A stretch of 64,000 bases of DNA from assembly GCF_053078305.1 (NCBI RefSeq), contig NZ_CP166879.1, one strand, 5' to 3'. Below the pieces are notes generated by a model. The model made no database searches, was not told the DNA's origin, and saw nothing but the letters and a program-made list of their open reading frames with translations. A program made the position numbers and the translations under genes. Numbering within the stretch: position 1 is the stretch's first letter; each line of letters starts with the position of its first letter. This document shows positions 22,573-23,612 of this stretch, in pieces.

Positions 22573-23250
22573 ATGACAACCGAAATTGACTATCAGGTAT
22601 TGCATGACGTGTCGGAACGCGCAATTACAGCGATGACACATCTGTCAATATTACCAGGTGATGATGATTTATTAAGCGAAAAGAAGCTCAAGGAGCTTGG
22701 TATTGATATTGATGCGATTCACGCCTTTAAAATTATGGCCGGGCCAGAAACCGTGCTGTCACTACTGGATGAACGAGATGCATTAAACGAACGCATGGCC
22801 GAACTGGAGGCTAATTTAGCGGAGCTGGCCGAAGACCAACAGAAAGCGATTGAGTCAATTAAGCAGGCTGATTCGGCTGTTAAGTTGGCACACGAGAAGT
22901 TTTCAGCGCTGGCGGCGGAGAATGCCAGACTGAAGGCTGCGCACCCTCAACCATTCGGACATGAGATGATGAAGGCTCTTGATGCGTATGAGAAGCATCA
23001 GGATGAAGTGCCAGAGACTGGAATGCTCAATGCATTTTTCATCTTGCGCGACAGCATCCGTGTTGAAACCCCAGCCACCGACTCTTTCCTGTCTGAAGTG
23101 CGGGCGCAGGCGTTTAATGACCTTTGCTCGGTGTTCGTTAAGGACGCGACGGTTGTCGGGCTGGACGATGGCGACATCGTTACGGTGAAAGAAGCGAAGG
23201 ACGCCCTGCTGCATTGTGCGGAACAGCTTCGCAAAGGAGGCAACCAGTGA
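22573..23250 (+). CDS. Ea22-like coiled-coil protein
   Basis: 225 aa; ...ETVLSLLDERDALNERMAELEANLAEL resembles lambda ea22 TPSIVLELLDERERNQ region. Confidence 0.45.
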   Translation: MTTEIDYQVLHDVSERAITAMTHLSILPGDDDLLSEKKLKELGIDIDAIHAFKIMAGPETVLSLLDERDALNERMAELEANLAELAEDQQKAIESIKQADSAVKLAHEKFSALAAENARLKAAHPQPFGHEMMKALDAYEKHQDEVPETGMLNAFFILRDSIRVETPATDSFLSEVRAQAFNDLCSVFVKDATVVGLDDGDIVTVKEAKDALLHCAEQLRKGGNQ

Positions 23251-23612
23251 GCAAGATTGACTATCAGGCACTGCGTGATGCAGCAGTAGCAATTGAAACA
23301 GTAGCAACGCCTCAAAAATTGCTGGCATTTCGTATGAAAGTCACACCGTCGGTGGTACTGGCGCTGCTGGATGAAATTAAGCGCCTGGAGGACACAAATA
23401 TTGATGCTATGTGCCGAATTGCAGAACTGGAAGCGAGGGAAGCCGAGTTACCGGATGGCTACGAACCCCGTATGGGCCACCCAATAAATAGCGGTGAGCG
23501 GGTGGTAATGATGCCGCACCACTTTGGTGGATGGCTGGACCGCTTCGACGTCGAGCACGCATTGCAGGCAGCGGGGATCAAATTCAAAACAGCGGGGGGT
23601 GAGTACGAATGA
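23248..23612 (+). CDS. Ea22-like protein (paralog), GTG start
   Basis: Begins VSKIDYQALRDAA, parallel to MTTEIDYQVLHDV of the preceding gene; RBS aggagg before GTG 23248. Confidence 0.45.

Follow-up and report, generated by a model that had tools for sequence, protein, structure and literature searches.

A probable mosaic pair of Ead/Ea22-family genes from the exo-xis region of a wrbA prophage of Escherichia coli

The Ea22 proteins of bacteriophage lambda and of Shiga toxin (Stx) phages are early, tetrameric and pro-lysogenic proteins with mosaic C-terminal domains (CTDs), and both the three-part mosaic architecture of the family and the presence of two variants in a single genome have been published (PMC7093339, PMC10834534). 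Lambda Ea22 (182 amino acids, aa) is encoded from a GTG start between exo and xis in the pL operon; its N-terminal motif (V)SEINSQALREAA is followed by the motif VLELLDE, a coiled coil and a CTD (aa 102-182; PDB 8DSX). The Ea22 proteins of the Stx phages Phi24B and 933W (V1, V2) display the same family N-motif, LLDE, coiled coil, mosaic CTD and exo-xis location (PMC10834534). Here, we describe two adjacent genes, designated A and B, in a stretch of 64,000 nucleotides (the window) of contig NZ_CP166879.1 (NCBI RefSeq assembly GCF_053078305.1). They belong to a lambdoid prophage of the 933W/Oslovirus type that resides at wrbA in E. coli, and occupy its exo-xis (early-left, pL) region. A and B likely represent two separate members of the Ead/Ea22 family, which comprises early accessory proteins of lambdoid phages, and form a mosaic pair in this prophage. 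The pair is real but ordinary, its members being distant relatives probably joined by module swapping and not the products of a fresh local duplication. The family, its mosaic nature and genomes with more than one Ea22 variant are already known, and RefSeq already names both proteins. Little is gained beyond a correct annotation, with two modest points of use for exo-xis work on Stx phages. The features of the pair, including those of the AlphaFold 2 (AF2) models with their predicted local distance difference test scores (pLDDT), are as follows.

22573-23250, plus strand: gene A, encoding an Ead/Ea22-family protein of 225 aa with an ATG start and the N-terminus MTTEIDYQVLHDV
22573-22779, plus strand: N-module of A (aa 1-69, 68-69-aa class) with the IDYQ motif and LLDE; AF2 helices 7-25, 32-41 and 46-56
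22744-22941, plus strand: long helix/coiled coil of A (aa 58-123), predicted as a helix by AF2 with a block pLDDT of 76-90
22942-23247, plus strand: C-terminal helical domain of A (aa 124-225) with a conserved PATDxFLxEVRA motif and the tail RKGGNQ
23247-23612, plus strand: gene B, encoding a minimal Ead/Ea22-family protein of 121 aa, (V/M)SKIDYQALRDAA, with a GTG start overlapping the stop of A (GTGA)
23247-23381, plus strand: N-module of B (aa 1-45, 45-aa class); AF2 helices 6-18 and 22-31, then the first part of helix 34-64
23415-23609, plus strand: C-terminal module of B (aa 57-121), RIAELEAREAELPDGY...GHPIN...GGEYE, with low AF2 confidence
22585-22597 and again 23256-23268, plus strand: 13-nucleotide (nt) word ATTGACTATCAGG (codons IDYQ), the sole exact DNA repeat of A and B

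Both proteins are members of the Pfam family Ead_Ea22 (PF13935), with 50.2 bits for A (aa 4-109) and 30.2 bits for B (aa 2-64) at a gathering threshold of 27 bits; the precomputed Pfam match for B on public contigs is merely "faint". In both cases, an N-terminal xIDYQxLxD motif (xI(D/N)YQALR(D/E)AA) precedes a VLxLLDE motif, whose LLDE (aa 64-67 of A, aa 40-43 of B) is encoded by CTGGATGAA at positions 22765 and 23367. The original prediction of ea22-like paralogs with a common N-terminal motif thus holds, and the pairwise similarity is far above chance: BLASTP aligned A and B with an E-value of 2e-6 (27% identity across 113 columns, with a 23-residue gap), and their local BLOSUM62 score of 79 was not reached by any of 2000 shuffles (30.8 +/- 5.1). 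Among the open reading frames (ORFs) of the window, A and B are the only ones matched by a hidden Markov model of the family's N-module. At the DNA level, the 13-nt word, for which the chance expectation is about 0.004 (678 x 366 positions), belongs to a 20/23 match at the 5' ends, and no other similarity between the two genes was detected. The two CTDs are not related to each other, and A and B have different best PHROGs (phrog_368 and phrog_250, respectively); the CTD of A matches phrog_492, phrog_614 and phrog_27745, which are all of unknown function.

For gene B, a TTG at 23214 given in a program-made ORF list was rejected as the start in favor of the GTG at 23247. This GTG is preceded at a distance of 6 nt by the Shine-Dalgarno (SD) sequence AAAGGAGG, gene callers reported a 121-aa protein on three public contigs with identical sequence, and a GTG start at this motif was found in 43 of the 55 unique genes of the family. 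The sequence of protein A equals that of the NCBI entry P0001, named "ead/Ea22-like family protein", and is present on nine public E. coli contigs (NCBI assemblies, up to 5.9 Mb). B and a DUF551 gene follow A on three of these contigs, and the other six are reported as similar. The RefSeq annotation "ead/Ea22-like family protein (x2)" occurs in many related prophages. The exact 2.2-kb mosaic, however, was not found in complete RefSeq E. coli genomes or in the phage collection (best coverage 55%).

The origin of the pair was assessed with 240 retrieved homologues, 130 of which contain the N-motif; 70 unique N-modules were sorted by length into classes of 45 aa (B), 68-69 aa (A), 70 aa and 89 aa. 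The mean identity is 78% inside the 45-aa class and 85% inside the 68-69-aa class, compared to 45% between these two classes and 42% between A and B. The individual parts of both proteins have closer relatives elsewhere. Residues 1-122 of A are 97% identical to P0095 (255 aa), which carries a different CTD, and residues 71-225 are 78-86% identical to proteins without PF13935 and with unrelated N-termini (MESNIKGLV..., MKQMTLIEMDGFLK...). Residues 1-68 of B share 84-89% identity with proteins of 149-169 aa carrying other CTDs, while residues 57-121 are 97% identical in P0127-P0132, which have other N-modules; in P0127 (193 aa), an A-type N-module is fused to the C-terminal module of B. Since each module recurs at 84-97% identity with other partners, module recombination fits the pair better than local duplication. 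Judged from these sequence relationships, A and B are best read as two old paralogous lineages, which would have been brought together and re-assorted by recombination. The signs of a recent tandem duplication are missing, in that A and B are not mutual closest relatives and have not retained DNA similarity.

Nucleotide comparison with related loci placed similarity breakpoints at 22576/22583 (boundary of leader and IDYQ, at the 13-nt word), 22925-22934 (end of the coiled coil of A), 23215-23246 (junction of A and B), 23375 (LLDE of B) and 23415 (start of the C-terminal module of B), and the window differs from its closest relatives by segments replaced at module boundaries. The pair has probably been created by homologous recombination between co-resident lambdoid prophages at short conserved sequences. 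Candidate sites are the start motif IDYQ, the motif LLDE, the position where the coiled coil ends and conserved junction cassettes at the 3' ends of the genes (see below). The first of these breakpoints lies next to the following element.

22471-22572, plus strand: untranslated leader upstream of A, also found 5' of the first Ea22 gene in phage P13374

In the relatives L001 and L002, the same leader precedes a gene for PAPS reductase instead, and the similarity switches at 22576/22583. Compared to L001 (6472-7890) and L002, the window (22471-22584) is devoid of the PAPS reductase gene and two small genes, so that its leader is joined straight to the Ea22 N-module, the switch point being located exactly at the ATTGACTATCAGG (IDYQ) word. 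A scan of the leader (22471-22572) revealed no promoter-like site, and its RNA fold is unremarkable (z = -0.58).

In comparison with the described systems, residues 1-100 of lambda Ea22 share 32% identity with B (E = 4e-7), whereas the match to A is limited to 29 residues (E = 0.002). The lambda CTD has no counterpart in A or B, and lambda ea22 is a single-copy gene without any gene within 190 nt after its IRIKGE tail. The Phi24B and 933W proteins, which match A and B with E-values of about 3e-4 to 2e-3, differ by an N-module of the 89-aa class with a beta insert and by much longer coiled coils; the two Ea22-related genes of 933W are not adjacent. A matching arrangement was found in P13374, an Oslovirus and the Stx2a phage of the O104:H4 outbreak. 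Following the shared leader, its ORF15 is near-identical to A through aa 118 and contains both the PATDxFL motif and the RKGGNQ tail, and a second Ea22 gene, ORF14 (135 aa from the GTG), is coupled to it via GTGA. The order of exo, SSB-like gene, DUF2303 gene, hypothetical gene, pair and DUF551 gene is also the same in P13374 and in the TL-2011c/phi191 relatives. Differences concern the middle of the CTD of ORF15 (241 vs. 225 aa in A) and ORF14 (135 vs. 121 aa in B), which has a beta-insert N-module, another CTD and a GIRIKGE tail.

For the O104:H4-type Stx phages P13374, phiON-2011, P13363, P8983, P14437, P13771 and TL-2011c, no detectable ea22 was reported (Goddard et al. 2024, Table 1). These phages do encode a coupled PF13935 pair like that of the window (P13374: L088 3074-4203), with both genes annotated in RefSeq, and the published lambda/V1/V2/V3 scheme, in which V2 stands for the DUF551 type and V3 for that of P27, therefore misses these classes of N-module and CTD. 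This may be of use for work on the exo-xis region of Stx phages, because phages listed as ea22-less in a lambda-based survey carry a divergent coupled pair of the family. Using tblastn, the Ea22 N-module was also found outside the lambdoid phages, namely in P7 (Upf88.3), in the P2-like phage P88, in Av-05, which is a virulent phage of the rV5 type, and in a phage of Actinobacillus. The module is therefore not bound to a lambda-type lysis-lysogeny circuit.

The genes of the pair are followed by a third cistron, and the elements at the two junctions and downstream of them are listed here.

23233-23240, plus strand: SD sequence AAAGGAGG for B, inside the A codons K-G-G
23594-23603, plus strand: SD-like sequence GGGGGGTGAG for gene C, inside the last B codons and 5 nt before the ATG at 23609
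23609-24169, plus strand: gene C, encoding a DUF551 protein of 186 aa (PF04448, 46.1 bits), whose ATG overlaps the stop of B (ATGA)
24198-24221, plus strand: terminator-like hairpin after A-B-C with a 10-bp stem followed by a T-rich tail, a consensus match only

A, B and C form a unit of three cistrons with start/stop overlaps of 4 nt (GTGA, ATGA), and the scan for promoters and terminators inside the A/B pair gave results at chance level. Of the 55 unique genes of the family collected from 86 related loci plus the window (loci L001-L088), 53 begin with an NTGA that overlaps the preceding ORF. The 3' ends of Ea22-family genes fall into a few stereotyped DNA cassettes (23226-23262 and 23586-23619 in the window). 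The cassette GGCATTCGCATCAAAGGAGAGTGA encodes GIRIKGE*, and the next ATG is located one base past the stop. CTTCGCAAAGGAGGCAACCAGTGA encodes LRKGGNQ* and is followed by a gene starting on GTG, which is an Ea22 member in 9 of 11 unique cases, and AAAACAGCGGGGGGTGAGTACGAATGA encodes KTAGGEYE* with a subsequent gene starting MIEGISN, a combination of B end and next start found in all five unique relatives. The last 25 nt are conserved at 96-97% (majority fraction, synonymous positions included) compared to 52-71% in the preceding 50 nt; for the RKGGNQ cassette, the values are 97% across 11 unique genes and 52-68% further upstream. Unrelated proteins encoded upstream likewise end in xGGNQ-type tails.

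The codons for K-G-E (AAA GGA GAG) and K-G-G (AAA GGA GGC) spell the SD core (AAGGAG/AAGGAGG), and AAAGGAGAG is the DNA of the K/R-G-E tail in ea22 of lambda and Phi24B. The significance of the K/R-G-E motif of Ea22 proteins has been called unknown (PMC7093339). From the codons involved, the tail is probably the SD sequence of the next cistron read in frame and hence most simply a downstream ribosome-binding site, and it should not be taken as a functional peptide motif without checking. The tails of A (RKGGNQ) and B (AGGEYE) are not of the K/R-G-E type, while many close relatives of B end with IRIKGE. Lambda ea22 retains the cassette (L006 2330-2375, minus strand), followed by just a 5-codon GTG remnant. 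Near-invariant junctions between diverged flanks, at which breakpoints are clustered, resemble the boundary-sequence model (Susskind-Botstein/Clark et al., summarised in PMC3233612). In contrast to this model, the junctions described here double as SD and overlap signals of the next cistron, and their conservation could therefore reflect translation alone.

These junctions bear on a variant of the preferred reading, with which it is compatible and to which we give a modest chance: an ancient duplication would have generated a two-slot unit that travels as a pair, with modules being swapped inside the slots. The upstream member would end in the RKGGNQ cassette and the downstream member would start VSKIDYQ on the GTGA overlap. 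The junction RKGGNQ-to-GTGA-to-(V)S(K/E)I(D/N)YQ was indeed found in L001, L025, L027, L028, L029, L059/L060, P13374 and the window, where it links two family genes in several different mosaics, and 13 of the 66 loci having a family gene contain two. However, non-family proteins merely ending in xGGNQ often take the place upstream of an Ea22 gene; tails of this type are located upstream in about 27 of 55 cases, most of them without the N-motif. Furthermore, the genes 93-95% identical to B (L007-L010) lack an A-like neighbor, and the N-module classes are not sorted by slot.

With regard to function, the reading of A and B as Ead/Ea22-family accessory proteins leads to the following expectations by analogy to lambda and Phi24B Ea22. 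A and B would be acidic, oligomerizing scaffold proteins that appear within minutes after infection or induction, each of them presenting a different CTD to a host or phage partner. They may shift the lysis-lysogeny decision in favor of lysogeny and host survival, as judged from distant homologues only; such a pro-lysogenic phenotype is a tentative expectation, possible but short of an even chance. For ea22 deletions in lambda and Phi24B, a lower number of lysogens and a faster induction have been reported. The net charges (-20 for A and -8 for its CTD, -6 for B and -5 for its CTD) fit the acidity reported for Ea22 CTDs. The ratios of nonsynonymous to synonymous substitution rates (dN/dS), 0.54-0.65 for A vs. 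relatives and 0.25-0.42 for B with its homologues at 93-95% identity, fit expressed accessory genes under moderate constraint. The AF2 model of A is all-helical (mean pLDDT 69), and the heptad a/d pattern of its 66-residue helix was reached by none of 2000 shuffles, which supports a coiled coil in A.

Several points weigh against this reading. The coiled-coil segments originally proposed for both proteins can be upheld for A, but are weak for B: the B model (mean pLDDT 63) has three N-terminal helices (6-18, 22-31 and 34-64; pLDDT 77-87), and the heptad pattern of the 31-residue helix was reached by 219 of 2000 shuffles, so that the coiled coil of B is short, statistically unsupported and at most vestigial. 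The resemblance of A and B to studied Ea22 proteins is confined to the region of the N-motif and LLDE (E = 4e-7 to 2e-3), and sequence comparison found their CTDs to be unlike those of lambda (8DSX) and of 933W/Phi24B Ea22. Sequence searches of the PDB with A, B and the family profiles yielded nothing below E = 0.07 (as a positive control, lambda Ea22 finds 8DSX), and Foldseek searches of the PDB with the AF2 models of A and B gave matches only at E > 2. As the AF2 models are of moderate to low confidence, no fold was assigned. Breakpoint positions are the basis on which recombination at the junction cassettes is proposed. In published work, the lambda CTD on its own does not give the phenotype, and Ea22 has no known partner (PMC7093339, PMC10834534). 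Searches for other families gave only weak coiled-coil matches of A to LmuB in PADLOC-DB (E = 0.0016 and 0.0075; 13-15 bits), no PADLOC-DB match for B, C or two neighboring genes (encoding 147 and 245 aa), and no meaningful NCBIfam family for A and B.

Translational coupling is typical of stoichiometric partners. The overlapping starts and stops, as predicted from the sequence, would couple the cistrons, which favors the idea of a single hetero-oligomeric complex with A, B and perhaps C as its subunits, held together by N-module and coiled coil; the pair would then be one functional unit instead of two separate effectors. The oligomerization-type modules of A and B are homologous, and Phi24B Ea22, the pro-lysogenic member that has been studied best, unites in a single chain the N-module, the coiled coil and DUF551, which are found here on the adjacent genes B and C, DUF551 being located on the separate gene C coupled to B. 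Residues 115-186 of C share 48% identity with the DUF551 end of Phi24B Ea22 (E = 6e-19). The DUF551 protein p05 of 933W was checked as a carrier of an Ea22 N-module and has none, so the fusion argument is drawn from Phi24B Ea22 only. On the other hand, B-like genes exist without A-like partners, lambda Ea22 was reported as a homotetramer and the helix of B is short; we therefore regard a hetero-oligomer as unlikely. In its widest form, for which the prospects are slim, A, B and C would be co-translated subunits of one hetero-oligomeric early complex, a split equivalent of Phi24B Ea22, and the cassettes (RKGGNQ/GTGA, IRIKGE/TGAnATG, GGEYE/ATGA) would serve as both ribosome-binding sites and recombination linkers. 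If true, prophages could combinatorially swap effector domains onto a common oligomerization scaffold.

Gene C itself is a fusion: a run of six A's at 23835-23840 joins a 77-aa ORF (MIEGISNK...GDEK) in frame with the DUF551 ORF (MSTTLEQ...), whereas L009 and L012 have five A's and hence two separate genes with an ATGA overlap. The six-A variant is also found in L003 and is therefore no one-off sequencing error; it may be the outcome of slippage, of a phase-variable fusion or of a neutral indel.

That the two genes were duplicated locally in tandem within this prophage lineage and then diverged in place, as originally proposed, is very unlikely. A and B are adjacent on the same strand, their N-terminal parts are homologous and their 5' ends share the 13-nt word, but the proposal is contradicted by the affiliation to different N-module classes (42% identity of the A and B N-modules vs. 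78-85% within the classes across many phages), by the end of the DNA similarity after the 20/23 match, by the unrelated C-termini, by the closer relatives of both halves of each gene with other partners (84-97%) and by the segment replacement at module boundaries that separates the window from its closest relatives. There is next to no likelihood that either ORF, or both, is a spurious frame or a non-functional remnant in a decaying prophage, since, although B has the shortest architecture in the family with a truncated coiled-coil segment and gene C is fused through a homopolymer indel, the dN/dS values of 0.25-0.65, the intact frames, the strong SD sequences, the conservation across many genomes and the lack of family matches for the antisense ORFs at 22903-23328 argue against it. 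The antisense ORFs 22903-23328 and 22998-23315, which have neither Pfam nor PHROG matches, were treated as spurious.

The assignment of the pair to an analog of the lambda b region had to be abandoned. A and B are located in the early-left operon between exo and xis/int: the exonuclease gene (19367-20056) precedes them and the integrase gene (29330-30664) follows, all on one strand. Lambda ea22 is also found there, not in the b region but between xis and exo, on the right of attP. On the same strand upstream of A, genes for RecT (18369-19370) and the YqaJ/lambda-type exonuclease are followed by genes for an SSB-like, a YfdP-like and a DUF2303/YfdQ protein and a 147-aa protein without assigned function. 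Downstream of the pair are genes for an anti-repressor, for HigB/HigA (on the minus strand), for an ORF6N protein, for MT-A70 and for the integrase. Next to the integrase gene is wrbA, and beyond it are agp, yccE, cbpA and the tor genes, an arrangement shared with E. coli RM10042.

The genes for the HigB-like toxin and the HigA antitoxin (25045-25658, minus strand) are placed on the opposite strand inside the early-left operon; in the relative RM10042, HigA and a ParD antitoxin are encoded at this position. Rfam contains no RNA family matching within 22573-23612. Matches at gathering level to the Hfq-binding RNA isrK (53 bits) and the C4 antisense RNA (70 bits) were obtained at 25728-25801 and 25827-25910 (plus strand), directly upstream of the ORF6N (antirepressor-type) gene at 25963-26640. 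This arrangement resembles the c4-ant immunity module of the P1/P7 type, here inside a lambdoid exo-xis region. In addition, the prophage part of the window contains two tandem copies of the small RNA STnc100 (5847-6060 and 6122-6333, minus strand; 199 and 139 bits) and a match to sRNA-Xcc1 at 16757-16845 (plus strand, 66 bits).

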